Positions 3 through 56,146 of a DNA stretch of 64,000 nt are shown in pieces. The DNA is taken from the sequence record OP870145.1; one strand, given 5' to 3'. Position numbers and translations under genes: made by a program. Below the pieces are notes generated by a model, which was not told where the DNA came from, ran no database searches, and was given only the letters and a program-made list of their open reading frames with translations. The stretch comes from Escherichia phage vB_Eco_F26. The stretch's first letter is position 1. The number at the start of each line of letters is the position of its first letter.

Positions 3-1955
<1,953 letters not shown>

Positions 1956-11571: not shown

Positions 11572-13137
11572 ATGACTATCAAAACTAAAGCTGAACTTTT
11601 GAACAAATGGAAGCCATTACTGGAAGGTGAAGGTTTACCGGAAATTGCTAATAGCAAACAAGCGATTATCGCTAAAATCTTTGAAAACCAGGAAAAAGAT
11701 TTCCAGACAGCTCCAGAGTACAAAGACGAAAAAATCGCTCAGGCGTTCGGTTCTTTCTTAACAGAAGCTGAAATTGGTGGTGACCACGGTTACAATGCTA
11801 CCAACATCGCTGCAGGTCAGACTTCTGGCGCAGTAACCCAGATTGGCCCGGCTGTTATGGGTATGGTACGTCGTGCTATTCCTAACCTGATTGCTTTCGA
11901 TATTTGCGGTGTTCAGCCGATGAACAGCCCGACTGGTCAGGTATTCGCACTGCGCGCAGTATATGGTAAAGACCCAATCGCTTCCGGCGCTAAAGAAGCA
12001 TTCCACCCAATGTATGGTCCAGATGCAATGTTCTCTGGTCAGGGTGCTGCTAAGAAATTCGCTGCTTTGAAAGCAAATGATACTCTTGAAGTCGGAACTA
12101 TTTACACCCACTTCTTCCAGGACACTGGTACTGTGTATCTGCAAGCTACAGAAGTTAAGCAAATTGACACTAGTGCAACTGACGCAGCTAAATTAGATGC
12201 TGAAATTAAGAAACAAATGGAAGCTGGTGTACTGGTAGAAATCGCTGAAGGTATGGCTACTTCTATCGCTGAACTCCAGGAAGGTTTCAATGGTTCTACC
12301 GATAACTCATGGAATGAAATGGGCTTCCGTATCGATAAACAAGTTATCGAAGCTAAATCTCGTCAGCTGAAAGCTGCTTACTCTATTGAATTAGCACAAG
12401 ACCTTCGCGCTGTTCACGGTATGGATGCTGATGCTGAACTGTCCGGTATTCTGGCTACCGAAATTATGCTGGAAATCAACCGCGAAGTTGTTGATTGGAT
12501 TAACTACTCAGCTCAGGTTGGTAAATCTGGTATGACCCTGACTCCGGGTTCTAAAGCTGGTGTATTTGACTTCCAGGATCCGATTGATATTCGTGGTGCT
12601 CGCTGGGCGGGTGAATCCTTTAAAGCTCTGTTGTTCCAGATTGACAAAGAAGCAGTTGAAATTGCTCGTCAGACCGGTCGTGGTGAAGGTAACTTCATTA
12701 TCGCTTCCCGTAACGTAGTTAACGTTCTGGCTTCAGTTGATACCGGCATTTCTTATGCTGCACAAGGTCTGGCTACCGGCTTTAACACTGATACTACCAA
12801 GTCAGTATTTGCTGGTGTTCTGGGTGGTAAATACCGTGTATATATCGACCAGTATGCTAAACAGGATTATTTCACTGTAGGTTATAAAGGTCCGAACGAA
12901 ATGGATGCTGGTATTTACTATGCTCCATATGTAGCTCTGACTCCGCTGCGTGGTTCCGATCCGAAGAACTTCCAACCAGTAATGGGATTCAAAACTCGTT
13001 ACGGTATCGGTATCAACCCATTTGCAGAATCCGCTGCTCAGGCTCCGGCTTCTCGCATTCAGAGCGGTATGCCTTCTATTCTGAATAGCCTTGGTAAAAA
13101 CGCTTACTTTAGACGTGTATATGTTAAAGGTATCTAA
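11572..13137 (+). CDS. 23: major capsid protein gp23
   Basis: 521 aa; sequence recognisable as T4 gp23 (MTIKTKAELLNKWKPLLEGEG...). Confidence 0.95.
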   Translation: MTIKTKAELLNKWKPLLEGEGLPEIANSKQAIIAKIFENQEKDFQTAPEYKDEKIAQAFGSFLTEAEIGGDHGYNATNIAAGQTSGAVTQIGPAVMGMVRRAIPNLIAFDICGVQPMNSPTGQVFALRAVYGKDPIASGAKEAFHPMYGPDAMFSGQGAAKKFAALKANDTLEVGTIYTHFFQDTGTVYLQATEVKQIDTSATDAAKLDAEIKKQMEAGVLVEIAEGMATSIAELQEGFNGSTDNSWNEMGFRIDKQVIEAKSRQLKAAYSIELAQDLRAVHGMDADAELSGILATEIMLEINREVVDWINYSAQVGKSGMTLTPGSKAGVFDFQDPIDIRGARWAGESFKALLFQIDKEAVEIARQTGRGEGNFIIASRNVVNVLASVDTGISYAAQGLATGFNTDTTKSVFAGVLGGKYRVYIDQYAKQDYFTVGYKGPNEMDAGIYYAPYVALTPLRGSDPKNFQPVMGFKTRYGIGINPFAESAAQAPASRIQSGMPSILNSLGKNAYFRRVYVKGI

Positions 13138-13150
13138 TCTTTGACGATTT

Positions 13151-13183
13151 AAGGGACCTTCGGGTCCCTTTAGTTGTTTTTAT
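13151..13183 (+). terminator. rho-independent terminator after gene 23
   Basis: Hairpin AAGGGACC-TTCG-GGTCCCTT followed by T-run. Confidence 0.75.
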
Positions 13184-13185
13184 GG

Positions 13186-13193
13186 TATAAATA
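13186..13193 (+). promoter_or_regulatory. late promoter (TATAAATA) for gene 24
   Basis: Exact TATAAATA ~28 nt upstream of ATG 13221. Confidence 0.7.
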
Positions 13194-13220
13194 AATCATA
13201 TAAACCAAAAGGAAAGCGCA

Positions 13221-14504
13221 ATGGCTAAAATCAACGAACTTCTGCGCGAATCAACCACAACGAATAGCAACTCAATCGGTCGCCCAAATCTCGTTGCTTT
13301 GACTCGCGCTACCACTAAATTAATATATTCTGACATTGTAGCAACGCAGAGAACTAATCAACCTGTTGCTGCTTTTTATGGTATCAAATACCTTAACCCA
13401 GACAATGAATTTACATTTAAAACTGGTGCTACTTATGCTGGCGAAGCTGGATATGTAGACCGAGAACAAATCACAGAATTAACAGAAGAGTCTAAATTAA
13501 CTCTCAATAAAGGCGATTTATTCAAATATAATAATATCGTTTATAAAGTATTAGAAGATACACCATTTGCTGATATTGAAGAAAGTGATTTAGAATTAGC
13601 TCTTCAGATTGCAATTGTTCTTTTAAAGGTTCGTCTATTTTCTGATGCTGCAGTAACAAGCAAATTTGAAAGCTCTGATAGTGAAATTGCGGATGCTAGA
13701 TTCCAGATTAATAAATGGCAAACCGCAGTTAAATCTCGCAAACTTAAAACTGGTATCACAGTTGAATTAGCACAAGATTTAGAAGCAAATGGATTCGATG
13801 CTCCTAATTTCTTGGAAGATTTGCTTGCAACTGAAATGGCAGATGAAATCAATAAAGATATTCTGCAATCTTTGATCACAGTGTCAAAACGCTATAAAGT
13901 TACAGGAATTACTGATAGTGGATTCATCGATTTGAGTTATGCATCTGCACCTGAAGCTGGTCGTTCATTATACCGAATGGTATGTGAAATGGTTTCACAT
14001 ATCCAAAAAGAATCAACTTATACAGCAACGTTCTGTGTTGCTTCAGCTCGTGCTGCTGCGATTCTTGCTGCATCAGGTTGGTTAAAACATAAACCGGAAG
14101 ATGATAAATATCTTTCACAAAATGCCTACGGGTTCTTAGCTAATGGTTTACCGCTTTATTGCGATACTAACAGCCCATTAGATTATGTAATCGTTGGTGT
14201 AGTAGAAAATATCGGTGAAAAAGAAATTGTTGGATCAATTTTCTATGCTCCGTATACAGAAGGTCTCGACTTAGATGACCCTGAACATGTAGGTGCGTTT
14301 AAAGTTGTTGTTGATCCAGAAAGCTTACAGCCGTCTATCGGTTTATTAGTTAGATATGCTTTATCAGCAAATCCTTATACCGTAGCAAAAGATGAAAAAG
14401 AAGCAAGAGTAATTGATGGTGGAGACATGGATAAAATGGCGGGTCGTTCAGATTTGTCTGTTTTATTAGGTGTTAAGCTACCAAAAATTATCATTGATGA
14501 ATAA
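13221..14504 (+). CDS. 24: capsid vertex protein gp24
   Basis: 427 aa as T4 gp24; late promoter upstream. Confidence 0.9.
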   Translation: MAKINELLRESTTTNSNSIGRPNLVALTRATTKLIYSDIVATQRTNQPVAAFYGIKYLNPDNEFTFKTGATYAGEAGYVDREQITELTEESKLTLNKGDLFKYNNIVYKVLEDTPFADIEESDLELALQIAIVLLKVRLFSDAAVTSKFESSDSEIADARFQINKWQTAVKSRKLKTGITVELAQDLEANGFDAPNFLEDLLATEMADEINKDILQSLITVSKRYKVTGITDSGFIDLSYASAPEAGRSLYRMVCEMVSHIQKESTYTATFCVASARAAAILAASGWLKHKPEDDKYLSQNAYGFLANGLPLYCDTNSPLDYVIVGVVENIGEKEIVGSIFYAPYTEGLDLDDPEHVGAFKVVVDPESLQPSIGLLVRYALSANPYTVAKDEKEARVIDGGDMDKMAGRSDLSVLLGVKLPKIIIDE

Positions 14505-16117: not shown

Positions 16118-17533
16118 TTATGGATAGGTATAGATGATACCAGTTTCTAAAGCAGTTTTATGAATGATGTATCCATTACGCGATTCTTGGACATCAACTT
16201 CTGGATAGTCTTTAATCATCTTCTGAAGAGTGTAACGATGCAGGTAGTATTTACTATCTGGGTCGTCAGTTTTCCAATCTTTACCTTCTTCGGTCATTTT
16301 TTGGATTTCATCCATAACCCACCAACCGCACCAGATATAAGCTGAAGTACGATGTGGAAGAGGATGAACATAAGGTAGTTCACCTTCTGGTTCAATTGGA
16401 GTCCGTTCAGCAATAACAACTTCAGCTGTTGAACTAATTGTCTTTGAAGTGTAATTATCTTTAGTTAATACTGCTTCAACTTTAATTGTATGAGTACCCG
16501 CTGAGGAGGTATCAATACTATAAGTATTAGTAGAATTACTTTCTGCTACGTTGTCTTTCTTCCAAGAGTACACAATATTAGTATCACCAGGAGCACCAGT
16601 AACAGATGCTGTTAAAGTTGCAGTTCCACCAACAGTAGTATTAACTGATGGCGGAGATAAAGAAATGGTGGCACTATTAAATGTCGCATTATTAGTTACT
16701 ACTGTTGCTTCTGCTGAAATTTCTTTTGTAACATAATTTGTTGCAGAAACAGATGCGGTGCATTTAAGAGTTTTACTTCCGACTTCGGTCGGAGTGAATT
16801 TATACGTAGCAGAAGTTGCATCCGGAATATTACTGTCATCCATTGACCATTGGAATGTTATAGTAGCACCTGAAGGTGCACTAGAGACATTTGCAGTTAA
16901 AGTAATAGGAACACCAAAGACTGTAGTCGGAGACTCGGGTGTAATTTTTAGCGTCGAAGAATTAGCCTTTTTATTTACAGTCAAAGAAACCGCTGATGAT
17001 TCTACTGTTTTATCAACGTAATCAGTTGCAGTCACTGTGACAGAGCAAGTTATAGACTTAGTTCCTTCAGTTGTTGGTGTATATTCAAAGGTTGATTGCT
17101 TTTGACCGTCAACATCGACCCCGTCAACTTTCCATGTATAATCAATAGCAGCACCAATAGGTTGATTGCTTACATTAGCAGTGAATGTTGTTGCTGTTCC
17201 AATTTCTACTGCCGCAGGAGAAGCCGGAGTAACAGTGATAGTGGAATTATTTTCTTTCTTATTAACAGTGATAGTTGTTGATGCTTCAGCTATTTCCGGA
17301 TCTCCTGCGGAAAGTGTATTAGTTGCAACCACTTTAATTTTTTTTGTTCCTGCTGGAGAAGCAAGAGTATAATCCATTGTAGCAGCCGTAGAGCCCTGTG
17401 TTATATCATCTACAGTCCAGACGTATGTAATAGTACCGTCTGGGGTTTCACCTGCAGGTGTAGCAGTGAATGTTTGTGAACCTCCAATAACCCCTGTAGG
17501 AGTTAGAGGAGATAACGTGACAGTGAATGCCAT
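16118..17533 (-). CDS. hoc: highly immunogenic outer capsid protein Hoc with four Ig-like repeats
   Basis: 471 aa; four ~90-aa Thr/Ser-rich Ig-like modules then a distinct C-terminal domain (YVHPLP...WCGWWVMDE); position between 24.3 and inh. Confidence 0.8.
   Translation of the reverse strand: MAFTVTLSPLTPTGVIGGSQTFTATPAGETPDGTITYVWTVDDITQGSTAATMDYTLASPAGTKKIKVVATNTLSAGDPEIAEASTTITVNKKENNSTITVTPASPAAVEIGTATTFTANVSNQPIGAAIDYTWKVDGVDVDGQKQSTFEYTPTTEGTKSITCSVTVTATDYVDKTVESSAVSLTVNKKANSSTLKITPESPTTVFGVPITLTANVSSAPSGATITFQWSMDDSNIPDATSATYKFTPTEVGSKTLKCTASVSATNYVTKEISAEATVVTNNATFNSATISLSPPSVNTTVGGTATLTASVTGAPGDTNIVYSWKKDNVAESNSTNTYSIDTSSAGTHTIKVEAVLTKDNYTSKTISSTAEVVIAERTPIEPEGELPYVHPLPHRTSAYIWCGWWVMDEIQKMTEEGKDWKTDDPDSKYYLHRYTLQKMIKDYPEVDVQESRNGYIIHKTALETGIIYTYP
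16400..17500 (-). repeat. tandem Ig-like domain-coding repeats within hoc (four units, approximate extent)
   Basis: Recurring ~90-aa protein modules (...TFTA.../...YTWKVDG.../...ITFQWSMDD.../...IVYSWKKDN...). Confidence 0.6.
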
Positions 17534-17542
17534 AAGTTATCC

Positions 17543-18223
17543 TTATTTTAATGTTATGAAAGAAGAATTACGAGTTTCGCGAATTAGAACTGATCCATCG
17601 CGATTAATATAATAAATTAAGCTAAATAATGTTTGGTGTGCTGACGCATGTTCAAAACTAGTTGGGTGAGATTTCCAATCCGGAGTTTCAGCAATCCATT
17701 GATAAATCCACCAAGGAACAGTGCAGAATCCTGGATTTTTTCCAATCAGTTGAAGATTCGGACTAAAGTTTTCCGGAAGAGTAAATACAGACGGCTTTTC
17801 AGATTCAATAATCTCAGCTACAGCTTGTTCAAACTTTTCTTCAACAAACGGAGTGTCTTCAATCAAAACTGAGGTATTTTCAGGAATTTTATCCGTTTCT
17901 ACTACTTCAATTTTAATGTCAGATTTAACCGGAGAATCAATCAAAAGTGCTGCTTCTGGATTGACTTCTTCATCGTCATATTTTAATCCCTCTGCGGCAT
18001 CAGCAGCATCAATTAAGTCTTTAATAGATAACCCATCAGTCTCCGGCATAGGTTCACTAGCGAGCTTCTGGAGGGCTTCTTCAATATCAACAACGATATT
18101 ATCAAAAGATTTATTCTTTTTGACTTTTATACCAAACTGTTCAGCATATTCAGCTAATTTAGCTTTAGCTTCTTTATTATCATCAAGAGCCTTCAGCTCT
18201 GCAATATAATCTTTATCTATCAT
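17543..18223 (-). CDS. inh: inhibitor of prohead protease Inh
   Basis: 226 aa as T4 Inh; synteny. Confidence 0.7.
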   Translation of the reverse strand: MIDKDYIAELKALDDNKEAKAKLAEYAEQFGIKVKKNKSFDNIVVDIEEALQKLASEPMPETDGLSIKDLIDAADAAEGLKYDDEEVNPEAALLIDSPVKSDIKIEVVETDKIPENTSVLIEDTPFVEEKFEQAVAEIIESEKPSVFTLPENFSPNLQLIGKNPGFCTVPWWIYQWIAETPDWKSHPTSFEHASAHQTLFSLIYYINRDGSVLIRETRNSSFITLK

Positions 18224-18236
18224 AATATTTCCTCAG

Positions 18237-18244
18237 TATAAATA
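18237..18244 (+). promoter_or_regulatory. late promoter (TATAAATA) for uvsW
   Basis: Exact TATAAATA ~30 nt upstream of uvsW ATG. Confidence 0.65.
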
Positions 18245-18273
18245 TAGATATATTTATTACATGGTATTTAGAC

Positions 18274-19785
18274 ATGACTGACATTAAAGTACATTTTTAT
18301 GATTTTAGTCACGTGAGAATTGATTGTGAAGAAAGCACATTTCATGAACTCCGTGATTTCTTTAGCTTTGAAGCTGATGGGTATCGTTTTAACCCTCGCT
18401 TCAGATATGGCAACTGGGATGGACGAATCCGTCTTTTAGATTATAATCGTCTTCTTCCATTCGGTTTAGTCGGGCAAATTAAAAAGTTCTGTGATAACTT
18501 TGGCTATAAAGCCTGGATTGACCCACAGATTAACGAAAAAGAAGAATTATCAAGAAAAGATTTTGATGAATGGCTTTCTAAATTAGAAATCTATTCAGGA
18601 AATAAAAGAATTGAACCACACTGGTATCAAAAAGATGCAGTGTTCGAAGGATTAGTTAATCGTCGTAGAATTCTTAATCTTCCAACATCTGCAGGTAAAT
18701 CGTTAATTCAAGCTCTGCTTGCTCGGTATTATTTGGAAAATTATGAAGGTAAAATTCTTATCATTGTTCCAACAACTGCTCTAACAACTCAGATGGCTGA
18801 TGACTTCGTTGACTATCGTTTATTCAGTCATGCAATGATAAAGAAAATTGGTGGCGGAGCATCAAAAGATGATAAATATAAAAATGATGCACCAGTCGTT
18901 GTTGGTACATGGCAAACTGTAGTAAAACAACCGAAAGAATGGTTCTCACAGTTTGGAATGATGATGAATGATGAATGCCATCTTGCTACAGGAAAAAGTA
19001 TTTCATCTATCATATCAGGTTTAAATAACTGCATGTTTAAATTTGGTCTATCAGGTTCATTACGTGACGGCAAAGCCAATATCATGCAGTATGTTGGAAT
19101 GTTTGGTGAAATATTTAAGCCAGTAACGACCTCTAAATTAATGGAAGATGGACAAGTAACTGAGTTAAAAATTAATAGTATTTTTCTTCGCTATCCCGAT
19201 GAGTTCACTACTAAATTAAAGGGAAAAACTTACCAAGAAGAAATAAAAATTATTACTGGGCTCAGTAAAAGAAATAAATGGATCGCTAAATTAGCTATTA
19301 AGCTTGCACAAAAAGATGAAAACGCTTTTGTCATGTTTAAACATGTATCGCATGGTAAAGCTATTTTCGATTTAATTAAAAATGAATACGATAAAGTTTA
19401 TTACGTATCAGGGGAAGTTGATACCGAAACCCGCAACGTAATGAAAACCTTAGCTGAAAATGGTAAAGGAATAATTATAGTAGCTAGTTATGGTGTATTT
19501 TCTACTGGTATTTCAGTTAAAAATCTGCATCATGTTGTTTTAGCGCACGGCGTTAAATCAAAAATCATTGTATTACAAACAATCGGTCGTGTATTACGTA
19601 AGCATGGTTCTAAGACAATCGCAACTGTCTGGGACCTCATAGATGACGCGGGCGTGGTTTCTAAATCAAAAACATCTTCTAAAAAATACTCGCATTTAAA
19701 CTATCTTTTAAAACATGGACTTGATCGTATTCAGCGTTATGCTGATGAAAAGTTTAATTATGTGATGAAAGAGGTTAAACTTTGA
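18274..19785 (+). CDS. uvsW: UvsW DNA/RNA helicase (SF2)
   Basis: 503 aa; helicase motifs PTSAGKS and DECH; late promoter upstream. Confidence 0.85.
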   Translation: MTDIKVHFYDFSHVRIDCEESTFHELRDFFSFEADGYRFNPRFRYGNWDGRIRLLDYNRLLPFGLVGQIKKFCDNFGYKAWIDPQINEKEELSRKDFDEWLSKLEIYSGNKRIEPHWYQKDAVFEGLVNRRRILNLPTSAGKSLIQALLARYYLENYEGKILIIVPTTALTTQMADDFVDYRLFSHAMIKKIGGGASKDDKYKNDAPVVVGTWQTVVKQPKEWFSQFGMMMNDECHLATGKSISSIISGLNNCMFKFGLSGSLRDGKANIMQYVGMFGEIFKPVTTSKLMEDGQVTELKINSIFLRYPDEFTTKLKGKTYQEEIKIITGLSKRNKWIAKLAIKLAQKDENAFVMFKHVSHGKAIFDLIKNEYDKVYYVSGEVDTETRNVMKTLAENGKGIIIVASYGVFSTGISVKNLHHVVLAHGVKSKIIVLQTIGRVLRKHGSKTIATVWDLIDDAGVVSKSKTSSKKYSHLNYLLKHGLDRIQRYADEKFNYVMKEVKL

Positions 19786-20474
19786 ATTATAAATTAATAT
19801 ATGATAATTTAATTAATAGAGCCCAGAATCGGGCTCGCCTTAATGGATACACTGAAACACATCATATAATTCCTAGATGTATGGGTGGTACAAATGATAA
19901 GTGTAATTTAGTAGAACTAACGGCTGAAGAACATTTTATAGCCCATAAACTTTTAGCTAAAATTCATCCAAATCATTACGGTATAATTAAAGCCGTTATA
20001 TGTATGGGAATGAACTCAAAGACTCATGAAAGACACGTTAATAAATCTTACGCGTGGGAACGTCGTAAAATGGCAGAACTTCAATCCGGCGAAGGTAATC
20101 CATTTTACGGAAAACACCATACGGAAGAACATAAACAATATATGTCAAAACTCATGAAAAGTCGTCCAATTACATGGGGAAATAAAATTAGTAAAACTAA
20201 AAGAATGAACCCAACGAAATGGACTGAAGAAGCTAAAAGATTACATTCAATCAATCAATCGGGTAAAAATAACGGCATGTATGGAAGGAAACATTCCGCT
20301 AAATCTATTCAGAAAATTAAAGATAACATGCCAGATAATTCAGGAGCTAATAACCCAGCTGCTAAACCTATAGAAGTAAATGGTGTTAAATATAAATGTA
20401 TGAAAGATGCTTCTAAAGCTACTGGATTATCAATGTACAAACTAAGAATACTTAGAAAAACAGTTAATTTATAA
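19782..20474 (+). CDS. free-standing HNH homing endonuclease (Mob-like)
   Basis: TTG start overlapping uvsW stop (TTGA) with AGAGG SD; motif YTETHHIIPRCMGG..N..EHFIAH; paralog of ORFs 371..1183 and 47929..48639. Confidence 0.8.
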   Translation: MNYKLIYDNLINRAQNRARLNGYTETHHIIPRCMGGTNDKCNLVELTAEEHFIAHKLLAKIHPNHYGIIKAVICMGMNSKTHERHVNKSYAWERRKMAELQSGEGNPFYGKHHTEEHKQYMSKLMKSRPITWGNKISKTKRMNPTKWTEEAKRLHSINQSGKNNGMYGRKHSAKSIQKIKDNMPDNSGANNPAAKPIEVNGVKYKCMKDASKATGLSMYKLRILRKTVNL

Positions 20475-29840: not shown

Positions 29841-31937
29841 TTATCCTTGAACGAACTTGTAAGGCATGTTTGCAATATCTATGCAAGACGCAATAATTCC
29901 AAGAGATGATTCTACTTTCTGTTTAACATTTGATGAAACAAATGATGCAAAGTCAACTCTGTCTTCTATTTCAATATCACCTGTCATTGCAACTACTTCG
30001 CCAGTTTCCATTAGACGGTCACCGTCATAAATTACTGATTCGGTGAGTTCTTCCGTAGTCATAACTTCAGCTTGAATGAGTTTTGTATTATTAGATGTTG
30101 TTCCGTCATTATTAGAAGCATCAGTTATTTTATTAACTTTGACCATCAATCCGCGCGGTAGAATAACTTCAGCTTCTGTTGCTATTCCGAGACTTCCTGG
30201 ATATACAACATTAACTTTATGAGCTCCATCAATTGCCCATCCTATTTGAACTTTAACGTATTCAGGATTTTCTTTATACGCTCTTATTTCGTTTGGATTA
30301 ATAGTTATTCCTTCTTCATTTTTATCAACTGTTAATTCATTGCGAGCTTCTGGTTCTAAAAGACCGATACCAGCATGTGTAATTCCAAAACGTCCAAAAA
30401 TGATAGGAGTTAAAGAAGTAGATACAAAATTTCTGAAATAGAACACTTTATTTTTAACTAGTGCTTCGTATATAGGAGCAGTCATGCTTTGAGCACGATA
30501 AACTGTAATGCCTTCTGGTATACGGTCACCATTTTCAAAAGCTGAATCTAAATTATTTATCGCAGATTCAATTTCTTTTTCACTCATTACATCATATCGT
30601 TCTGGATTGTAGCGGCCTAAAAGAAGATTATTGATGTCAGTATATCCTGATCCACAATATTCTCTAATGCCGCGCTTTTGTGATGGAGTATATTTAGAAC
30701 CATCACGGGCAATAGTAATATCAATCATTGGACCTGCACCAATTCCAGAAAAACTATAAATCATTCGTTTGAGGAATTTAGTTTTTGCTGCGTTCCAGGA
30801 ATTTTTAGTTATTTCTTCCCAGACTTCATCTGGCTGTCCTTTACGGGTTTTATTATGTTTATCAAGCCAATTATCTTTATATTCTTCAAAGAATTTATTA
30901 ACAGCTGCTGCGTATTTCTCTAAACATTTTATTGAAGTAGTTGGTTCATTTTTAATCGCATTAAGAATTACATCTTTAATTTTTTCAGAAACTTCATCAA
31001 CCTCACTTTTTGAAAAGAATTTATAGTCATAGTGAAGTTCATTTGCAGTTCCTTCAGCAATAATTTTTGCTGCCTTAGTTTTAGAAGCTAATGAATTAAT
31101 TCCAAGCTTCATTTCTTCTGCTTCGGGAATTAAAGGAGCGGTAGCAGGTTTATTAAAATTAGCTGCGGTAGATTCATACTTCTGGAATAATTCACTTTCA
31201 AATCTAGAAGATTCTAATGATTGACTTTGCGCAATTGCTCTACGGGAAATTTTAACTTTAACAATAACAGCTTGGTCAGAACGTTTATCATTTTCTTGTG
31301 CAATAGATGCTGCAATTGCCTCATTTTTAGTTACTTGAGCTCCGGTATCTTTATTGATATAAACATCGCCGACCTTCGATTCAACTTTAGTAAAGAGCTC
31401 GGTACTAATTTCCGGAACTCCTGGAATGTCTTCTAGTGATACATTTTTGCGATGTATAAGAATATATGCATACTTTTTATCATAATCCCAGAGTTCCTTA
31501 AGAAGGACGTATCTGCCGCCTGAACGACTACGGATAAGTCTATCAGCAATAACTTGAATTTGTCGAGCTTGACCAGCAGTTTTAGACTTAAGAATACGAA
31601 GCATACAGGCATCAATTTTATACTGACGCATTGTTTGCATTGCAACAGTAAAAACTGAATTGATGTAATTAATTGGGCTTGGACCGAGACCTTTTAATTT
31701 AGCAATTGAACCTTTAGCAGTTAGTGTAAAAGGAACAATGTGCATCATTTTATCGCCCATCTTTAAATCACGGTTAGTATCACCTCCAGATGTATAGGTA
31801 CATAAACGAAAGCCTGGTTGTTCAATTGCGTCATCAACATGAACTGAAAAAATTTGCGGTATTTTCTTCTTTGGATTTAAGTTTGTAATCGGAAGAGTAG
31901 TATCTTCGTCAAATAATTCTGTAATTAGTTCCATCAT
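29841..31937 (-). CDS. alt: ADP-ribosyltransferase Alt (packaged, modifies host RNA polymerase)
   Basis: 698 aa; T4 Alt position; late promoter just upstream. Confidence 0.8.
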   Translation of the reverse strand: MMELITELFDEDTTLPITNLNPKKKIPQIFSVHVDDAIEQPGFRLCTYTSGGDTNRDLKMGDKMMHIVPFTLTAKGSIAKLKGLGPSPINYINSVFTVAMQTMRQYKIDACMLRILKSKTAGQARQIQVIADRLIRSRSGGRYVLLKELWDYDKKYAYILIHRKNVSLEDIPGVPEISTELFTKVESKVGDVYINKDTGAQVTKNEAIAASIAQENDKRSDQAVIVKVKISRRAIAQSQSLESSRFESELFQKYESTAANFNKPATAPLIPEAEEMKLGINSLASKTKAAKIIAEGTANELHYDYKFFSKSEVDEVSEKIKDVILNAIKNEPTTSIKCLEKYAAAVNKFFEEYKDNWLDKHNKTRKGQPDEVWEEITKNSWNAAKTKFLKRMIYSFSGIGAGPMIDITIARDGSKYTPSQKRGIREYCGSGYTDINNLLLGRYNPERYDVMSEKEIESAINNLDSAFENGDRIPEGITVYRAQSMTAPIYEALVKNKVFYFRNFVSTSLTPIIFGRFGITHAGIGLLEPEARNELTVDKNEEGITINPNEIRAYKENPEYVKVQIGWAIDGAHKVNVVYPGSLGIATEAEVILPRGLMVKVNKITDASNNDGTTSNNTKLIQAEVMTTEELTESVIYDGDRLMETGEVVAMTGDIEIEDRVDFASFVSSNVKQKVESSLGIIASCIDIANMPYKFVQG

Positions 31938-39255: not shown

Positions 39256-39319
39256 ATTTACCTCACATAATTTTCTTCGAGCCAATTAATAATAGTCCAA
39301 GTTTCATGGTGCCAAGCCA

Positions 39320-40520
<1,201 letters not shown>

Positions 40521-43570: not shown

Positions 43571-44072
43571 TTAAAAGTATTTTTTAAAACTCATCATAAC
43601 TTTATCATCAACATCATTATCAATCTGTGCAACAAGGTAAGATGACAGTTCTACTTCTTGTGGCGCGGATTGAACATTATCAGAATTAAGATATTCACGA
43701 ATCCAAGGATATGGGTGTTTAACCGGAGCATCGGTAATTGGGCATGGAAGACCACACTGTTTCATACGAGATACAGTTAAGTAATCAATAAAGCTCCACA
43801 TGCTATTTGTATTTAATCCAGGAACATCGCCATCTTTAAATAAATGAACTGCCCAATCTTTTTCTTGGCGGTTAACTTCCATGAAAATATCAACTGCTTC
43901 TTGTTCACACTCTTGAGCAATTTTAACCCATTCATCACCATCAGTACCGGATTGAAGCTGACGAATAATATATTGAGTGCCTTTAAGGTGAAGCTGCTCA
44001 TCACGTGCAATGAACTTCATAATCTTGGCATTACCTTCCATGATTTCCATGTTCTTATGGAAGTTAAAGGTA
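43571..44072 (-). CDS. nrdB: ribonucleotide reductase small subunit NrdB, exon 2 (boundary approximate)
   Basis: In-frame continuation ...FNFHKNMEIMEGNAKI matching R2 proteins; joins exon 1 across a ~598-nt intron. Confidence 0.8.
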
Positions 44073-44670
44073 CCGTTATGTTCGATTGAGCTCGCTAATT
44101 CTCAACCCGTTCTCTTATGAACTGCTACATATTACTATGCAGACCAGACTATATCACAATCCCAGAGGGATTCTCCCCATTTCGAGTCGCTTGACCCTAC
44201 GTCCGAAGACTAGTCGTTGAACCTTGCTTTGCAATTGTCGCCGTGCCATCGTTTATATGTTGATGGTGATAAATCTTTCTTATCACAATATGGACAATTC
44301 AATTGAATTCTATTTGGATTTAATTTACATCTGTCATTATGTTTTAGATAAAATCCAGGACCTTTACCAATGTGACCACAGAAATCACATGTGATTTCTT
44401 TTTGTGCAGGATGGGTCCCGTTCTTAACCATTTCTAATGTTTTTGCTGATGTTCTTTTCTTATGGTCTTCCATCAGAATCTTTAGGTAGGTCCGTTAGCA
44501 TCTATCCAAATTTTTCTATAGTTCAATTGTGCATCCTCTTAAAAGTATAATCATATTATACTAATTAAAGGTGCAAGCAAAACCTTGGCTGCTAGTTTTC
44601 CTATAAAGGACTTTCTAGCAATTAAAGGAGTTTTCGATAAACGTTACCGTTTAAAGGCGCATTTTACGCA
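44073..44670 (-). mobile_element. group I self-splicing intron in nrdB (boundaries approximate)
   Basis: In-frame stop right after FYVSFA; conserved group I elements (GACUAUA / UAGUC); contains I-TevIII remnant ORF; ~598 nt. Confidence 0.7.
44210..44473 (-). CDS. I-TevIII homing endonuclease remnant (zinc-finger domain only)
   Basis: 87 aa with two Cx2C..H..C zinc fingers and no HNH catalytic region; intron-encoded. Confidence 0.7.
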   Translation of the reverse strand: MEDHKKRTSAKTLEMVKNGTHPAQKEITCDFCGHIGKGPGFYLKHNDRCKLNPNRIQLNCPYCDKKDLSPSTYKRWHGDNCKARFND

Positions 44671-45341
44671 AAAGATACATAAAAACGAATAGCTTCTAAG
44701 GCATTAATAACGTGCAAACAGAGGTAAAGAGATTTCATTAAAGCACGTTTAGCTTCGGCTTCTTGTTTAATAGCTCGGTTTAAACGAAAGTCGGCATCAG
44801 GAGATTCTTTAGCTAGTTCTACAAATTCTTTAGCATTTTCCCATTCACGGGTTTTAGTCAGAACATCATCATAATAACGACCGATAGATTCAGCACGTTT
44901 CATAATAGCTTCATCTAATACAATCTCATCAAATACCTTTGACGGATCAGTATAAAGATTTCGCATGATATGAGTATATGACCGACTGTGAATAGTTTCA
45001 CTAAAAGTCCATGTAGCAACCCATGTATCAAGGCTTGGGTCTGAAAGCAATGGCATAAGTACAGCAGACGGCGCACGACCTTGAATACTATCAAGTAATG
45101 ATTGATACTTCAGATTATTAGTAAAAATATTTTGTTGATACTGAGGAAGCTTATTAAACTGTGCAGCATCCATCATTAAGTTAACTTCTTCGGGACGCCA
45201 GAAAAACGAGAGCGAACGTTCAATAAGTTCTTCAAATACTCGATGTCGTTGAATATCATAACGCGCAATTCCAAGACCAGACCCAAAAAACATAGGTTCT
45301 TTTAAAACATCGACCTGTTTAGTATTAAAAACTGTACTCAT
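44671..45341 (-). CDS. nrdB: ribonucleotide reductase small subunit NrdB, exon 1
   Basis: N-terminal R2 sequence ending ...ALEAIRFYVSF(A) followed by in-frame TAA at intron start. Confidence 0.8.
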
Positions 45342-46933
45342 TATTTTGTCCTGTAAACTAAATTTCCACAGTCCCAGATTCTTCTAAGACCATTTGCATA
45401 ACAATTTTCTACTTCAGTTATTGTATCATCATAATTTTTAAGCTTGTTTTTAAGCTTATGTTTCATATAGCTTGAGCGGTGAAATACCTCTCCTTTATCG
45501 ACGTACCAATAACATGGCTCAGAGATATGACTAAATTCCATGACAGAGTCATAAACATTTGATAATGTACTGCACCATCTTCGATTGCCATAAGATAGAC
45601 AATTAATTCCTTTTAATAATTTTGAGGCTCCTCCTACAACACAAATCCCTAATTTTGAACACATCCTTAAAAGTTCATCACCTGAGCTATATCTAGATTT
45701 ACCGATAGAAATAATTTGAACTAACTCATTATTGTAATAAAGTCCTTTATACGTATGAGCTCCTGAGCAAAATCCTTGAAGATGATTCTTATTAATAAAT
45801 TCTTTTGCCTCATCCTTATTAACAAAACGCGCTTTGCATTTTCGGGCTGGTATTCTTTCTGATAATCCTAATTTATGCTTTATAATGGATTTCCAGATCT
45901 CTCTTTTTGTATCATCAATCCATTCATTTTCGAAGATGTGAAGTAATTGAATTCCTTGTGCTTCACACATCTCTGTCTTCATCAAATGATAAGTTTCTTT
46001 AATTTTATCTGTTTCCTTTGACCCGCTAGAATGCCAATAAATTCCATCGTATTCTATAGCCAATTTTTTCTCAGGAATGTAAATATCTAATTCATACGGA
46101 GGAATAATTTTTCTAGTTTCTACGCAATCAAATCCTAGATCTAAAATGAATTGCTCTATAGAACTTTGAGTATAATGAACGTCAATTAGTCCTTTGGATG
46201 AAAGAGCTCTATAAGCCGTCATCCGAGAACAATTTGCTAATTGTTGTAGTTCTTCTATAGAAATTTTGTAATTGATTTTATCTAGTATATCATGATTAAT
46301 ATGACCGTTATTTTTAATAGATTTTCCTATAGATGAATATAACGATGCCTTATATTCTTCAGTCCAATTTAATTTAGTCTTCTTAGATTTTTCGCGAGAT
46401 TTTCGAGAATTCAGAATATCAACTGATTTACCGTTTTCTATAACTTTTCTCGCTTCTTTCACACTTTCTAATTGTGAATTATGCGTTACCCCATATCGTT
46501 TAATTAAAGTTTTTCTATTTTTATTTCTTGAAATTTTTTGATGAGTTGTTCCATATTTTTCTAAAGAATTTTTGCGTTGAAGTTCAGACAAATATTTTTT
46601 ATATTTTTCTTTTCCGCCAAAATTTGTATCACGGCTTTGAATTCTCTTATCCGCGAAAAATATCCCTGAGCAGGATTTACTACATGTTGCTGGAAATACA
46701 CGTTTCTTTGCTGTTTTCAGAGAAATGAAATTTCCACAAACTGCACATTTTAGATCGTTAATGTCAATGCCTTCCATAATTTGGAACACATTGAGCTTAA
46801 AATCTATTCCATCAGTTAGAAGAGCTTTATCTTCTTCTGTTAGTCTAGATTTAAGTTTTTCTTCTCCAAATGGAAGAAACTTTCCGTTTTTGTATATATT
46901 ATCAAACATAGCGTTATTCTTAGTTAACCACAT
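45341..46933 (-). CDS. large free-standing endonuclease-like protein (Zn ribbon + PD-(D/E)xK / Vsr-like core), possible Hef-type homing endonuclease
   Basis: 530 aa; N-terminal CAVCGN...CSKSC; repeated KYG(T/V)TH modules; HTH-like LANCSRMTAYRAL; core ELDIYIPEKKLAIEYDGIYWHSS; Cys-rich C-terminus; sits at the nrdA/nrdB intergenic locus. Confidence 0.55.
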   Translation of the reverse strand: MWLTKNNAMFDNIYKNGKFLPFGEEKLKSRLTEEDKALLTDGIDFKLNVFQIMEGIDINDLKCAVCGNFISLKTAKKRVFPATCSKSCSGIFFADKRIQSRDTNFGGKEKYKKYLSELQRKNSLEKYGTTHQKISRNKNRKTLIKRYGVTHNSQLESVKEARKVIENGKSVDILNSRKSREKSKKTKLNWTEEYKASLYSSIGKSIKNNGHINHDILDKINYKISIEELQQLANCSRMTAYRALSSKGLIDVHYTQSSIEQFILDLGFDCVETRKIIPPYELDIYIPEKKLAIEYDGIYWHSSGSKETDKIKETYHLMKTEMCEAQGIQLLHIFENEWIDDTKREIWKSIIKHKLGLSERIPARKCKARFVNKDEAKEFINKNHLQGFCSGAHTYKGLYYNNELVQIISIGKSRYSSGDELLRMCSKLGICVVGGASKLLKGINCLSYGNRRWCSTLSNVYDSVMEFSHISEPCYWYVDKGEVFHRSSYMKHKLKNKLKNYDDTITEVENCYANGLRRIWDCGNLVYRTK

Positions 46934-46949
46934 CCTTGTGGTAATTATA

Positions 46950-47939
46950 TCATAATTTACAGGATGAACAATCTTCAGCTTTTGGAGTTTCTATTTCATA
47001 ATCATCAGTGCCAGAACCATCGCGGGTATTATGATAATAGAAATTTTTTCCGCCAAAATACCAAAAATACAAAAGGTCATCAATCATTATTGACATTGGA
47101 ACCTTTCCTTTTGGAAAAATCTGCGGGTCATAGTATGTATTCGCTGAAGCTGATTGACATACCCATTTCAGCATAATAGCTACCTGCGTAAGATAAGGTT
47201 TATTACCTTTCTTAGCTAATTTCCATGTATAATCATAGAGGTCTATGTTATGCTCAATATTGGGCACGACTTGATTAAAGGAGCCCTCTTTTGATTCTTT
47301 AACAGAGACTGGTCCACGTGGAGGCTCGATACCGTTTGTACTGTTAGAAACTTGGGAAGATGACTCACATGGCATAAGTGCTGATAATGTGCTATTACGG
47401 ATGCCAAAGAGCTTAAGGTCTTCCCGCAGCGCCGACCAGTCACAAACGTATTTTGGAGCTGCGATTTGGTCAATCTTTTTATTGTACCAGTCGATAGGTA
47501 ATTCGCCTCGAGACCAACGAGTGTCTGAATAATATTCGCAAGGTCCTTTTTCTTTGGCGAGCTTAATGGATGCTTTAATGAGTCCATACTGTAATCTCTC
47601 AAATAGTTCATGTGTTAAATCGTTAGCATCTTCATAAGAAGCAAAGTTGCTTGCCAGCCAAGCTGCATAGTTAGTAACACCTACACCGAGGTTACGACGC
47701 TTTTTAGCTTTTTCTGCTTCAGGAACTGGATATCCTTGATAATCCAAAAGATTATCAAGAGCGCGAACTTGAACTTCTGCCAATTCATTAATTTTATCTT
47801 GGTCTTGCCAATCGAAGTTATCCAGTACGAAGGCAGAGAGAGTACAAAGCCCCACTTCTCCCTTGTTTTCAATAACTTTTATTGTAGTATACTCATCATC
47901 TTCGTAAAATTCATCTACAAATTCATAATCAATATTCAT
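46950..47939 (-). CDS. nrdA: ribonucleotide reductase large subunit NrdA, C-terminal piece
   Basis: 329 aa; aligns to class Ia R1 from ...GEVGLCTLSAF to C-terminal CxxC tail; own ATG overlapping the HNH stop. Confidence 0.8.
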   Translation of the reverse strand: MNIDYEFVDEFYEDDEYTTIKVIENKGEVGLCTLSAFVLDNFDWQDQDKINELAEVQVRALDNLLDYQGYPVPEAEKAKKRRNLGVGVTNYAAWLASNFASYEDANDLTHELFERLQYGLIKASIKLAKEKGPCEYYSDTRWSRGELPIDWYNKKIDQIAAPKYVCDWSALREDLKLFGIRNSTLSALMPCESSSQVSNSTNGIEPPRGPVSVKESKEGSFNQVVPNIEHNIDLYDYTWKLAKKGNKPYLTQVAIMLKWVCQSASANTYYDPQIFPKGKVPMSIMIDDLLYFWYFGGKNFYYHNTRDGSGTDDYEIETPKAEDCSSCKL

Positions 47940-48639
47940 TTAATTCTTCTACCTTTTTTCTAGTAATTCCTAAAGCTTTAGATGCTCGATGTATTGATTG
48001 ATATTCTATACCGTTTATTTTTACAGCAATTAAGTTATGGGGTTTTAATCCCTTTGGATGAGGTTTACTGACGAAAACTAAATTATCAAGCTCTGAAATC
48101 TTATCCAATTTCTTACACTTAAATCCTTTGTGATGCGCCCGTTTACCTTTACAAACGGCTGACATTGCAGATGAATTTAAATTATGCTCTTTACAAAATT
48201 CGTTAAGACCTCGATGAATTTCCTCATGACCATCCGGAAATGTAAACACCCAAGATGTTTGAAGTCGAGATTTAACTTCTGGAGACATAGGAATACCTTT
48301 GTTCCAAGCTGGTTTGCCTTTATTATTTTCAGATACAGAAATAGCCAATTTTCTTCTAAGCCACCCATGGCGTTTATTGGTGTTCTTTCGTTCAATATTA
48401 TCTTCAGAATAAACACACATCATATTAGCGGCAAATATCAATTTATGATTATCTGGATATATCTTTACTAATAATTGATGAGCTATGTAATGCTCTTCTG
48501 GCGTCAAATCTACCAGGTTTTCCTTTGTATCAGAACCACCAATACACAGAGGTATAATATGGTGTGATTCGGTATAGCAATCTAATTTTCTGTTCTTAGC
48601 TTTAGAAATAAGGTTATTGTAAATTTTAGAATAATCCAT
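47929..48639 (-). CDS. free-standing HNH homing endonuclease inserted within nrdA
   Basis: 236 aa; motif YTESHHIIPLCIGG..N..EHYIAH; own SD (GAGGAAAA); paralog of the two + strand HNH genes. Confidence 0.8.
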   Translation of the reverse strand: MDYSKIYNNLISKAKNRKLDCYTESHHIIPLCIGGSDTKENLVDLTPEEHYIAHQLLVKIYPDNHKLIFAANMMCVYSEDNIERKNTNKRHGWLRRKLAISVSENNKGKPAWNKGIPMSPEVKSRLQTSWVFTFPDGHEEIHRGLNEFCKEHNLNSSAMSAVCKGKRAHHKGFKCKKLDKISELDNLVFVSKPHPKGLKPHNLIAVKINGIEYQSIHRASKALGITRKKVEELNEY

Positions 48640-48684: not shown

Positions 48685-50118
48685 TTATTTGCTTTGAATT
48701 ATACCGCCAGGATTAGCTTCATAAAACTTAGCTACATCCGACTTCTTAATTTTGATTAAACGGGTTTGTTGGCTATTCACATCATTTGTTGGAATAGCAA
48801 TTTCACAGCACAAGTTACTCTGACGAATAGGTGCCTTTTCACGAATAAACGGAGTATAGTTATTCGTATTATCAATGAACTGCACATAAATCCTTGCTGT
48901 TCCTGATCGTTCAGTCATGAGCAATTCAAACAGTTCACGGGCTTTAATACGCTTTTTACGAATATTAGGGTCTTTTTCTGCGGCTTCGTATAATTCACGG
49001 AAACGGTCTTGGTCTTTAAAATAAGAATAATAAAGTTCGCCACCCATTTCATGCGGACTGAACAAAGTAATGTAATCGTTCTTTCCGAATCGTTCCATCA
49101 TCAAATCATTCAGCTGAACACCATAATCCATGTGACGAATGCGGTTTTCTTCTACGCCTTTGTTATTTTTCAAAACGAGAAGATTTTCAACTTCCAAATG
49201 CCAAATAGGATAATAAGCAGTAGCAGCGCCGCCACGAATTCCACCCTGTGAACATGATTTAACAGCAGTCTGAAAATGTTTCCAAAAAGGAATAACACCA
49301 GTATGGCGTACTTCACCCATGCCAATCTTAGAACCTTCGGCACGAATCATACCAACGTTAATACCAATTCCAGCGCGTTTAGAGATATATTCAACAATTG
49401 AAGCGGAAGCCTTATTGATAGACTTTAATGAATCACCTGCCTCAATAACAACACATGAACTAAACTGTCGAGTCGGAGTACGACAACCAGCCATAATAGG
49501 AGTTGGCAATGAAATCTGTCGAGTAGATACTGCTTCATAAAAACGAATAACATGTTTTAGTCTATCAACAGGTTCATCTTGATGCAATGCCATTCCAATA
49601 GTCATAAATGCAAACTGTGGGGTTTCATAAATTTGACCGGTGGTTTTATCTTTAACTAGATATTTTTCTTTTAATTGCATCGCCCCGGAATAAGTAAATT
49701 CCATATCCCGTTCGTGCTTAATTTTTGATTCTAAAAATGTAATTTCTTCTGCTGAATATTTTGACAATAATTCAGGGTCATATTTACCTTCATTTACACA
49801 GTAAGAAATATGGTCAATAAATGAACGCGGTTCATACTGCCCATAAACATGCTTACGAAGAGCGAACATTAAACAGCGTGCAGCTACATATTGATAATCA
49901 GGTTCTTCAACCGAAATAGAATTCGCAGCAGCCTTAATGACAATAGTCTGAATATCATCAGTTGTCATTCCATCACGGAGATAAGATTTAATATTTTCAT
50001 ATAATTCATAAGGATCTACTGATGTTCCCTCAGCTGCCCAAGATAAAACTTTAATAATTTTTTGTGGGTCAAAGCTCTGAGAAACACCACTACTTTTGAT
50101 AACATTAATTAATTGCAT
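48685..50118 (-). CDS. nrdA: ribonucleotide reductase large subunit NrdA, N-terminal piece
   Basis: 477 aa; class Ia R1 through active-site SNLCCEIAIPTNDVNS, then 28 non-homologous residues and a stop. Confidence 0.85.
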   Translation of the reverse strand: MQLINVIKSSGVSQSFDPQKIIKVLSWAAEGTSVDPYELYENIKSYLRDGMTTDDIQTIVIKAAANSISVEEPDYQYVAARCLMFALRKHVYGQYEPRSFIDHISYCVNEGKYDPELLSKYSAEEITFLESKIKHERDMEFTYSGAMQLKEKYLVKDKTTGQIYETPQFAFMTIGMALHQDEPVDRLKHVIRFYEAVSTRQISLPTPIMAGCRTPTRQFSSCVVIEAGDSLKSINKASASIVEYISKRAGIGINVGMIRAEGSKIGMGEVRHTGVIPFWKHFQTAVKSCSQGGIRGGAATAYYPIWHLEVENLLVLKNNKGVEENRIRHMDYGVQLNDLMMERFGKNDYITLFSPHEMGGELYYSYFKDQDRFRELYEAAEKDPNIRKKRIKARELFELLMTERSGTARIYVQFIDNTNNYTPFIREKAPIRQSNLCCEIAIPTNDVNSQQTRLIKIKKSDVAKFYEANPGGIIQSK

Positions 50119-50435
50119 AAGTCCTCAACTTGAAAATCGTCTTTAAACAATCGGTTAACTATATGAGCTATTATATCACCATGACACGGCTTTGGTTTAC
50201 ATGTGCATCCTAGCCTCATTCCACGTAAAGGCTCTAAATGTGCTTTAGTTATTTCTCCAGATTTAATTCGACGTATAAAATCTTTTTTGAATAATTCAAT
50301 GGCAGCCTCCCGGCTGCCAGCATCTTTACCGACGTAATTTCCCCAAAATGTACCGCGGTGAATATTAACATCAAAGTCGGATTTATATTTATTCACTACC
50401 CGGCATAGACGGCCCACGCTGGAATAATTCTTCAT
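50109..50435 (-). CDS. hypothetical protein (nrdA.1-like, Cys/His motif)
   Basis: 108 aa; [11 protein letters not shown] motif; between td and nrdA. Confidence 0.5.
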
Positions 50436-50652
50436 ATTGTTTTTCCGTTAAAACAGTAATATCGTAGTAACAGTCAGAAGAAGTTTTAACTGTGGAAATT
50501 TTATTATCAAAATACTCACGAGTCATTTTATGAGTATAGTATTTTTTACCATAAATGGTAATAGGCTGTTCTGGTCCTGGAACTTCTAACTCACTTGGGT
50601 TAGGAAGTGTAAAAAGAACAACGCCAGAAGTATCTTTAAATCGTAAAATCAT
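50389..50652 (-). CDS. hypothetical protein (nrdA.2-like)
   Basis: 87 aa ORF between td exon 2 and nrdA.1. Confidence 0.45.
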
Positions 50653-50960
50653 ATTGCCATTTTCCCTTTAATTGCTGGATGCGATTCATAATTTTCAAGG
50701 ATAAAATCTTTCGGTTTCATGTATTCAGTTAACCAGTAAAGCTGTGTTTCGGTGTCACAATTTCCAAACTCTATAGGCCAATCAATTTTAAGTTCACACA
50801 GTTCTTTAGGCTCACGACGTAAAATTTCTTTACATTGCTCAGTATGATTCATATAGATGTGAGTATTACCACCAGAAAATATCAAATCTCCTGGGATAAG
50901 ATTACACATCTTAGCTACAATATGAACTAGTGCAGCATATGATGCAATATTAAACGGTAG
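50649..50960 (-). CDS. td: thymidylate synthase, exon 2
   Basis: Begins [11 protein letters not shown]... immediately after intron 3'-terminal G; 103 aa + stop. Confidence 0.9.
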
Positions 50961-51976
50961 CATTATGTTCAGATAAGGTCGTTAATCTTACCCCGGAATT
51001 ATATCCAGCTACATGTCACCATGCAGAGCAGACTATATCTCCAACTTGTTAAAGCAAGTTGTCTATCGTTTCGAGTCACTTGACCCTACTCCCCAAAGGG
51101 ATAGTCGTTAGGCATTTATGTAGAACCAATTCCATTTATCAGATTTTACACGATAAGTAACTAATCCAGACGAAATTTTAAAATGTCTAGCTGCATCTGC
51201 TGCACAATCAAAAATAACCCCATCACATGAAATCTTTTTAATATTACTAGGCTTTTTACCTTTCATCTTTTCTGATATTTTAGATTTAGTTATGTCTGAA
51301 TGCTTATGATTAAAGAATGAATTATTTTCACCTGAACGATTTCTGCATTTACTGCAAGTATAAGCAGAAGTTTGTATGCGAACACCGCACTTACAAAACT
51401 TATGGGTTTCTGGATTCCAACGCCCGTTTTTACTTCCGGGTTTACTGTAAAGAGCTTTCCGACCATCAGGTCCAAGTTTAAGCATCTTAGCTTTAACAGT
51501 TTCAGAACGTTTCTTAATAATTTCTTCTTTTAATGGATGCGTAGAACATGTATCACCAAACGTTGCATCAGCAATATTGTATCCATTAATTTTAGAATTA
51601 AGCTCTTTAATCCAAAAATTTTCTCGTTCAATAATCAAATCTTTCTCATATGGAATTTCTTCCAAAATAGAACATTCAAACACATTACCATGTTTGTTAA
51701 AAGACCTCTGAAGTTTTATAGAAGAATGGCATCCTTTTTCTAAATCTTTAAAATGCCTCTTCCATCTCTTTTCAAAATCTTTAGCACTTCCTACATATAC
51801 TTTATTGTTTAAAGTATTTTTAATCTGATAAATTCCGCTTTTCATAAATACCTCTTTAAATATAGAAGTATTTATTAAAGGGCAGTCCTACAATTTAGCA
51901 CGGGATTGTCTACTAGAGAGGTTCCCCGTTTAGATAGATTACAAGTATAAGTCACCTTATACTCAGGCCTCAATTA
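50961..51976 (-). mobile_element. td group I self-splicing intron (1016 nt)
   Basis: 5' end UAAUUGAGGCCUGAGUAUAAGGUGACUUAUACUUG..., 3' end ...ACAUAAUG, recognisable as the T4 td intron; contains I-TevI ORF. Confidence 0.9.
51108..51845 (-). CDS. I-TevI GIY-YIG homing endonuclease (intron-encoded)
   Basis: 245 aa; GIY-YIG motif (SGIYQIKN...VYVGSAKDFEKRWKRH); zinc finger CKCG..CSKC; inside td intron. Confidence 0.9.
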   Translation of the reverse strand: MKSGIYQIKNTLNNKVYVGSAKDFEKRWKRHFKDLEKGCHSSIKLQRSFNKHGNVFECSILEEIPYEKDLIIERENFWIKELNSKINGYNIADATFGDTCSTHPLKEEIIKKRSETVKAKMLKLGPDGRKALYSKPGSKNGRWNPETHKFCKCGVRIQTSAYTCSKCRNRSGENNSFFNHKHSDITKSKISEKMKGKKPSNIKKISCDGVIFDCAADAARHFKISSGLVTYRVKSDKWNWFYINA

Positions 51977-52525
51977 ACCCAAGAAAACATCTACTGATCG
52001 TTGATACCACTGAAGGTCAAGGTATCCATTACGAACATTAAATTGATAAAACATATGACAAGGCGGTAATGCCATCTGCTTGAGTTCAGCTGGATTCCAT
52101 GCTGAAACGATTTGACGTCGATCAGTTGGTAATTTTTTAATACGATCAATAGTTTCAACTAATTGATCCACACCACCGAAATCACGCCATTGTTTACCGT
52201 ATATAGGACCAAGTTCACCACTATGGTATCCTAAATCTTTTGCTTGATTTTCGTAATTTTCATCCCAGACTGTTTTGCCTTGGATTAACGAATCATGCTG
52301 AATTAATCGTAAATCATTGACATTTGTGCTTCCTGATAAAAACCATATTAACTCAGAAATGCAAGCTTTCCAGGCGAGCTTTTTAGTTGTTACTGCAGGA
52401 AAACCTTTGGTTAAATCCCAACGCAATTTAGTACCGAACAAAGCAATTGTTCCTGTGCCTGTTCGGTCATCAGTTTCATAGCCATTTTCAAAAATGTCTT
52501 TAATTAAATCTTGGTATTGTTTCAT
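51977..52525 (-). CDS. td: thymidylate synthase, exon 1
   Basis: 183 aa N-terminal TS ending ...VDVFLG before intron; exon1+exon2 = 286 aa as T4 TS. Confidence 0.9.
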
Positions 52526-52566
52526 TTAGTACCTTATATAAATTATAATACATTTTATGAAGCTAA

Positions 52567-56047: not shown

Positions 56048-56146
56048 TTTTATTTCCTTTTTAATTTAATTAACAGTTGGTGCTATGACGATGTATGACC
56101 TCATAGCTGGTCAGTGAGATAATTATAATCTATTTATAATAAGCAA

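Follow-up and report, generated by a model that had tools for sequence, protein, structure and literature searches.

Empty segD, segE and segG sites in a T4-like Escherichia phage that carries a different set of predicted homing endonuclease genes

Phage T4 carries a seg endonuclease gene at each of three gene junctions: segD (on the minus strand) between genes 23 and 24, segE between inh and uvsW, and segG between genes 32 and 59. A first-pass annotation of a 64,000-nucleotide stretch of Escherichia phage vB_Eco_F26 (OP870145.1; this whole stretch is referred to below as the window) had found no seg gene at any of these places, which raised the questions of what the junctions hold, how unusual such an absence is among related phages and which endonuclease genes are present elsewhere. 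That observation depended on the T4 gene order, and an error in this order had been named as the weak point of the claim. The order proved to be right, as the same sites for segD, segE and segG are given both by the RefSeq annotation of T4 and in a published table (Edgell, Gibb and Belfort 2010, Table 1; PMC2988022).

Judged by alignment, the window is a segment of a Tequatrovirus (T4-like) genome that starts in the last part of gene 13 and extends as far as gene 35. It was found by blastn to be colinear with positions 94,180-156,043 of T4 (NC_000866), mostly at 94-98% identity, and its capsid region was matched at 95-99% by about 500 deposited Tequatrovirus records. The best deposited record reached no more than about 97% identity over 25-kb stretches at full coverage, and about 4 kb of the genes in the window are missing from T4. 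The window and the corresponding stretch of T4 each have six endonuclease genes, but only two are common to both, and both of these are intron-borne; segD, segE, segG and mobE are present here only in T4, and the window has none of the four. These results support the view that the DNA comes from a natural T-even phage and not from reference T4.

The limits of the three junctions follow from the open reading frame (ORF) map, in which gp23 occupies 11572-13137 and gp24 13221-14504 (both plus strand), inh 17543-18223 (minus) and uvsW 18274-19785 (plus), and gp32 55139-56047 and gp59 56147-56800 (both minus). This leaves 83 bp for the 23/24 junction (13138-13220), 50 bp for inh/uvsW (18224-18273) and 99 bp for 32/59 (56048-56146), exactly the coordinates that had been given in the first-pass annotation. 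At all three sites the flanking genes are intact and adjacent, and both sides align to T4. In the blastn comparison, T4 positions 106522-107310 (segD) corresponded to 60 unaligned bases in the window (13149-13208), T4 112044-112680 (segE) to 21 (18260-18280) and T4 147918-148542 (segG) to 37 (56110-56146). No ORF of at least 20 amino acids was confined to any of the three junctions, the few that were listed extending into the flanking genes, and no seg remnant was detected in them either by blastn against T4 or by pairwise alignment. The ORF listing and both alignments thus bear out the initial observation: all three junctions are endonuclease-less ("empty") alleles of free-standing homing endonuclease sites.

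The junctions had also been described as holding only terminators or promoters, which held for the promoters at all three sites but for a terminator at only one. The motif TATAAATA, the T4 late-promoter consensus, was found at 13186-13193 (plus strand) in the 23/24 junction, where it would serve gene 24, at 18237-18244 (plus strand) in the inh/uvsW junction, facing uvsW, and at 56131-56138 (minus strand) in the 32/59 junction, facing gene 32. Its orientation is right in each case, and the three occurrences compare with about 0.03 expected in the 232 bp of the three junctions; over the window as a whole there were 18, against 9.4 expected. In the 23/24 junction a GC-rich terminator-like hairpin with a T-run follows gene 23 (13151-13170, plus strand), whereas no terminator was predicted in the inh/uvsW or the 32/59 junction. 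The sequence after the promoter motif in the 32/59 junction could be aligned pairwise to the T4 gene 32 leader, which is known as the translational operator of gene 32. The T4 gene 32 promoters sit within segG (PMC2988022), whereas in the window the gene 32 late-promoter motif lies in a short intergenic region.

A phage collection was queried with the T4 sequence spanning each junction, and the gene was scored as present in a record if a single place there covered 80% or more of the query. By these BLAST coverage classes, which include duplicate RefSeq/GenBank entries and are approximate, segD was carried by 53 of about 500 Tequatrovirus-level records (∼11%), segE by 159 of 500 (∼32%) and segG by 141 of 510 (∼28%). 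Most of the remaining records matched with both flanks only, at the spacing of an empty site, and a minority with one flank only. The segE site is empty in T2, RB32 and RB68, and the segG site in RB18, wV7 and PP01; at 23/24, Klebsiella and Raoultella phages (∼80% identity) matched only the flanks of the T4 query, which lay about 470 bp apart. The direction of these counts is clear: the empty allele is the majority state in the genus, and T4 is the outlier. To call the three junctions "canonical" seg sites is therefore correct for T4 but an overstatement for the genus, and the absence of the seg genes from this phage is unsurprising because seg occupancy is a minority state. Published work points the same way, T4 having been noted for an unusual density of such endonuclease genes and T2 for its low number of them (PMC10448857). 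T4 SegE converts RB30 and RB52, both of which lack segE, and its homing into RB30 has been shown in crosses; T2 is a recipient for both SegG and SegF, and SegG excludes T2 gene 32 (PMC2330249).

At the three places where the first-pass annotation had reported HNH genes, namely 13/14, uvsW/uvsW.1 and nrdA, an ORF was indeed found. The first (371-1183, plus strand) lies between genes 13 and 14 and encodes 270 amino acids, with a Pfam HNH_4 match of 23.5 bits (cut-off 22), a match to phrog_655 (6e-51) and 41% identity to the N-terminus of T4 MobE. The second (19782-20474, plus strand; 230 amino acids), between uvsW and uvsW.1, has a NUMOD3 domain (7e-14), also matches phrog_655 (3e-60) and is 50% identical to the MobE N-terminus. 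Its start codon is TTG and overlaps the uvsW stop codon as TTGA (19782-19785); this overlap, together with the annotation of an ORF of the same length at the same position in T6, suggests translational coupling. The third (47929-48639, minus strand; 236 amino acids), within nrdA, was recognised by Pfam, phrog_655 and likeness to MobE, and has an I-HmuI-like NUMOD domain. All three proteins belong to phrog_655 (1e-51 to 1e-60). An N-terminal stretch of about 105 residues, corresponding to the catalytic module, shows 41-50% identity to T4 MobE, while their C-terminal parts differ. Only the 13/14 ORF scored above the cut-off for Pfam HNH_4; the Pfam HNH profile was below cut-off for the 13/14 and nrdA ORFs and gave no match for the uvsW one. 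They are predicted to be Mob-type free-standing HNH homing endonucleases of the T4 MobA-E family, two of them being intergenic and the nrdA one having its own start and stop codons between separately translated nrdA pieces. The 13/14 gene was present in 46 of 506 records, T6 and FL12 among them, the uvsW/uvsW.1 gene in 48 of 500, including T6, and the nrdA gene in 34 of 651; T4 has neither of the first two.

The complement as first listed was real but incomplete, as it had missed hef (45341-46933, minus strand; 530 amino acids), which lies between nrdB and nrdA and replaces the nrdB.1 and mobE genes of T4. This gene matches phrog_3339 (6e-152) and has 98.6% nucleotide identity to the hef of phage U5 (AY262133) over 2.1 kb that include both flanks; it was present in 16 of 525 records. 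An unusual homing endonuclease, hef was first described in U5 (Sandegren, Nord and Sjoberg 2005, cited in PMC2988022). Both hef and the three HNH genes are recognisable and of full length relative to their homologues.

The td and nrdB introns, which had also been reported, are both present. The td group I intron (50961-51976, minus strand), whose ends were assigned to the T4 splice junctions from sequence motifs and the reading frame, is 1016 nt long as in T4, and its removal restores a 286-amino-acid thymidylate synthase in which the conserved 13-residue segment is present. Within it, I-TevI (51108-51845, minus strand; 245 amino acids) is intact, with all its Pfam domains. The nrdB group I intron (44074-44665, minus strand) is 592 nt long, and its removal gives a NrdB of 392 amino acids; the junction motifs used here were validated on T4, where they recovered the annotated 598 nt and 388 amino acids. 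At the nrdB locus (43571-45341, minus strand), exon 1 exceeds that of T4 by 12 nt (4 codons), whereas the intron is 6 nt short of the T4 length. The ORF inside the nrdB intron (44210-44473, minus strand; 87 amino acids) is a shortened, defunct I-TevIII remnant, which matches only positions 184-269 of the 269-amino-acid profile, that is, the C-terminal part, and is shortened much as in T4. When Rfam was searched at the gathering threshold, no match was obtained anywhere in the window, the td and nrdB introns included; Intron_gpI scored 37.3 bits (E 9e-7) for td and 34.0 bits (E 9e-6) for nrdB against a gathering score of 50, probably because of the endonuclease ORF within each intron. In the comparison by chunks (50001-52528), the one that lay wholly within the td intron was 99.6% identical to T4, whereas its neighbours containing td exons were about 90% identical to T4 and FL12, which is the pattern that would be expected if a diverged td gene had recently acquired the intron.

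The HNH gene "in nrdA" needs a more precise description, since it is a free-standing gene that splits nrdA in two, with no signal of a group I intron or an intein. The upstream piece, nrdA-a (48685-50118, minus strand; 477 amino acids), comprises the N-terminal 449 residues of NrdA, ending ...NLCCEIAIPTNDVNS, and then a basic tail of 28 amino acids. The downstream piece, nrdA-b (46950-47939, minus strand; 329 amino acids), shares its first 11 bp with the 3' end of the HNH gene and begins with an acidic tail of 26 amino acids, after which the C-terminal portion of about 300 NrdA residues opens with GEVGLCTLSAF. The split falls between the equivalents of Cys439 and Cys462 of the Escherichia coli enzyme, the pI values of the tails are 10.0 (NrdA-a) and 4.05 (NrdA-b), and the active-site cysteine is residue 32 of NrdA-b. 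The insert was considered as a group I intron and rejected: no intron signal was obtained in the same search in which td and nrdB scored, the HNH ORF leaves only about 130 bp and 80 bp on its two sides, and the nrdA pieces carry their own stop and start codons. A split intein was rejected as well, there being no Hint/intein domain by Pfam, tails of only 28 and 26 amino acids, no C, S or T residue at either junction and no terminal HN. This split nrdA is carried by 34 Tequatrovirus records.

When compared in 1-kb steps, the window was alternately closer to T4 or to phage FL12 (PP400786). The chunk with hef was 99.1% identical to FL12 and missing from T4, and the chunk with the td intron was missing from FL12; among the phages examined, FL12 had the most insertions in common with the window. 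Each endonuclease element is known in other deposited phages (T6, U5, FL12 and others), but the same set was found neither in T4, T6 and FL12, which were checked in detail, nor in any other record examined. By the measure of this patchwork the window is a mosaic, and the first-pass description of a distinct T-even mosaic, rather than reference T4, agrees both with the patchwork and with the sharing of only two of the six T4 endonuclease genes. The alignment to T4 and other T-even phages that had been proposed as a check gave a result consistent with this, the window being colinear with T4, with the seg segments replaced, and the sets of T6 and FL12 differing from its own.

Several other patches of divergence were noted in the same comparison. 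At 35904/35905 a 783-bp segment of T4 (129475-130258), which contains 30.7 and 30.8 and is kept in FL12, is cleanly missing. Between td and frd, a 400-bp insert missing from both T4 and FL12 contains an ORF of 115 amino acids (52567-52914, minus strand) that has no Pfam match and belongs to phrog_1928, a family of unknown function. The hoc gene (16118-17533, minus strand) encodes 471 amino acids, compared with 376 in T4 and 472 in FL12, and its centre (16393-17196) could not be aligned at the DNA level to either. Sequence replaced or strongly diverged relative to T4 was also found at 39287-40518, 54081-54704, 30698-31128 and 61001-62000, which correspond respectively to the region of cd.4/cd.5 and pseT.1, that of frd.2, a portion of alt and a portion of gene 34 (87% identity).

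We infer with high confidence that each of the three junctions represents the recipient allele of a polymorphic site for a GIY-YIG free-standing endonuclease, and that the phage is a natural Tequatrovirus with a different endonuclease set. No observation was made that speaks against this view. The junctions would then have retained only the signals of their flanking genes, namely the gene 23 terminator, the late promoters of gene 24, uvsW and gene 32, and the gene 32 leader. The anatomy, homology, population frequencies and identity patchwork were observed in the present comparison. The mechanism is modelled on published T4 work: in a mixed infection an endonuclease would cut the allele that lacks its gene, recombinational repair would transfer that gene, together with its flanking sequence, to the cleaved genome (homing), and ordinary recombination with occasional loss would reshuffle the loci, leading to a combination of its own in each isolate. 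SegE and SegG would accordingly be expected to convert this phage in a cross with T4. For segD the model is doubtful and may not apply to the 23/24 site, because homing of its own gene is reportedly not promoted by SegD (Sokolov et al. 2018).

The same junctions could have arisen by secondary loss, if an ancestor had carried segD, segE and segG and these had later been deleted or replaced by recombination with empty alleles. Homing endonuclease genes are considered to pass through successive phases of invasion, decay and loss; the shortened I-TevIII shows that decay does occur in this window, and recombination with an empty allele would be scarless, so clean junctions are compatible with it. 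We nevertheless consider it unlikely, as no seg remnant was found in the junctions and the empty allele is the majority state of the genus; at 23/24, moreover, the flank-only matches of the Klebsiella and Raoultella phages make a site that was never occupied, or has long been empty, the simpler reading. Nothing was found in favour of misassembly or collapse of the sequence, or of its derivation from a laboratory deletion mutant of T4, and this reading has next to no probability: every base of the junctions agrees with the empty alleles of hundreds of phages that were sequenced independently, the 2-5% divergence from T4 across the whole window excludes a laboratory T4 deletion derivative, and there are the ∼4 kb of genes that T4 lacks.

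Nor do the junctions appear to house, in place of the seg genes, a small gene, a structured RNA or another element that escaped recognition. A stem, GCUAUGA...UCAUAGC, can be drawn in the gene 32 leader of the 32/59 junction, but the fold of this leader was no better than that of shuffled sequences (z = -1.0), and the leader aligns to that of T4. With no internal ORF of at least 20 amino acids in the junctions, no Rfam family at the gathering threshold in the window, and only 50-99 bp in each junction, which promoter and terminator signals account for, we regard such an element as very improbable. A further idea is that the empty sites are not naive targets but cleavage-resistant alleles, in which nearby polymorphisms give protection when a co-infecting T4-like phage supplies SegE or SegG, and perhaps also SegD. 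The identity to T4 does fall near the inh/uvsW junction, to 87% across inh and 94% in uvsW, and we hold the idea as a tentative and rather doubtful one. If it were true, the endonuclease set and the empty sites together would form a partial barrier of genetic isolation between co-circulating T-even lineages.

That seg and mob content varies among T-even phages, and that these genes home into empty sites, has been textbook knowledge since the 1990s, and such homing accounts for the classic finding that T4 partially excludes the markers of T2. The present finding is thus an ordinary, well-documented case of homing-endonuclease polymorphism and mosaicism, which was already known. It has little import beyond correct annotation, and its practical value lies in the catalogue of endonuclease genes for this 64-kb stretch. 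The prediction for a cross between the two phages is that the one studied here would give up its gene 32 and uvsW-proximal markers, while T4 would acquire the HNH and hef loci. Among the side observations the split nrdA of the Aeh1 type, with its oppositely charged tails, stands out most; the arrangement is of a known kind, but its occurrence in a coliphage may deserve a short experimental note.

Among known phages, T4 has the same gene order from 13 to 35 at 95-98% identity and shares both introns, with I-TevI in td and a shortened I-TevIII in nrdB. It differs in having segD, segE, segG and mobE, all missing from the window, which has hef and, at other sites, three Mob-type HNH genes. T6 (NC_054907) has the 13/14 and uvsW/uvsW.1 HNH genes at about 98-99% identity, but carries segE upstream of uvsW and has an overall identity of about 97% over the first 25 kb. 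FL12 resembles the window in lacking segD, segE and segG and in having the 13/14 HNH gene, hef, an HNH-split nrdA and the nrdB intron; it differs in lacking the uvsW/uvsW.1 HNH gene and the td intron and in having 30.7 and 30.8. Phage U5 has the nrdB-hef-nrdA order at the same position, with mobE replaced, and no difference was detected at that locus. T2, RB30, RB52 and most other Tequatrovirus phages without segE and/or segG have the same short gene-free inh/uvsW and 32/59 junctions, T2 and RB30 being the recipients in the classic marker-exclusion crosses with T4. Here the empty sites occur together with HNH genes, hef and the td intron, a combination that was not found in T4, T6 or FL12.

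The nrdA locus has its closest parallel in Aeromonas phage Aeh1, which was compared through its published description (PMC3045599). There too, in the order nrdA-a/mobE/nrdA-b, the split falls between the equivalents of Cys439 and Cys462, and the two parts are separated by a Mob-type HNH gene that overlaps nrdA-b. The Aeh1 tails, which are essential for activity, have the same charges as those found here (basic in NrdA-a, pI 10.4 compared with 10.0; acidic in NrdA-b, 3.8 compared with 4.05), and the active-site cysteine is residue 31 of the Aeh1 NrdA-b; the same paper knew of no other split nrdA among 1200 sequences (PMC3045599). On these features the locus described here matches the Aeh1-type genes-in-pieces arrangement of ribonucleotide reductase. 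Among the matches listed for a tblastn search with the nrdA HNH protein, a spread sample of 1060 records, Aeh1 did not occur. Aeh1 is an Aeromonas phage and the phage studied here a coliphage of another genus, and the likeness suggests that coliphages, too, have the Aeh1-type solution.
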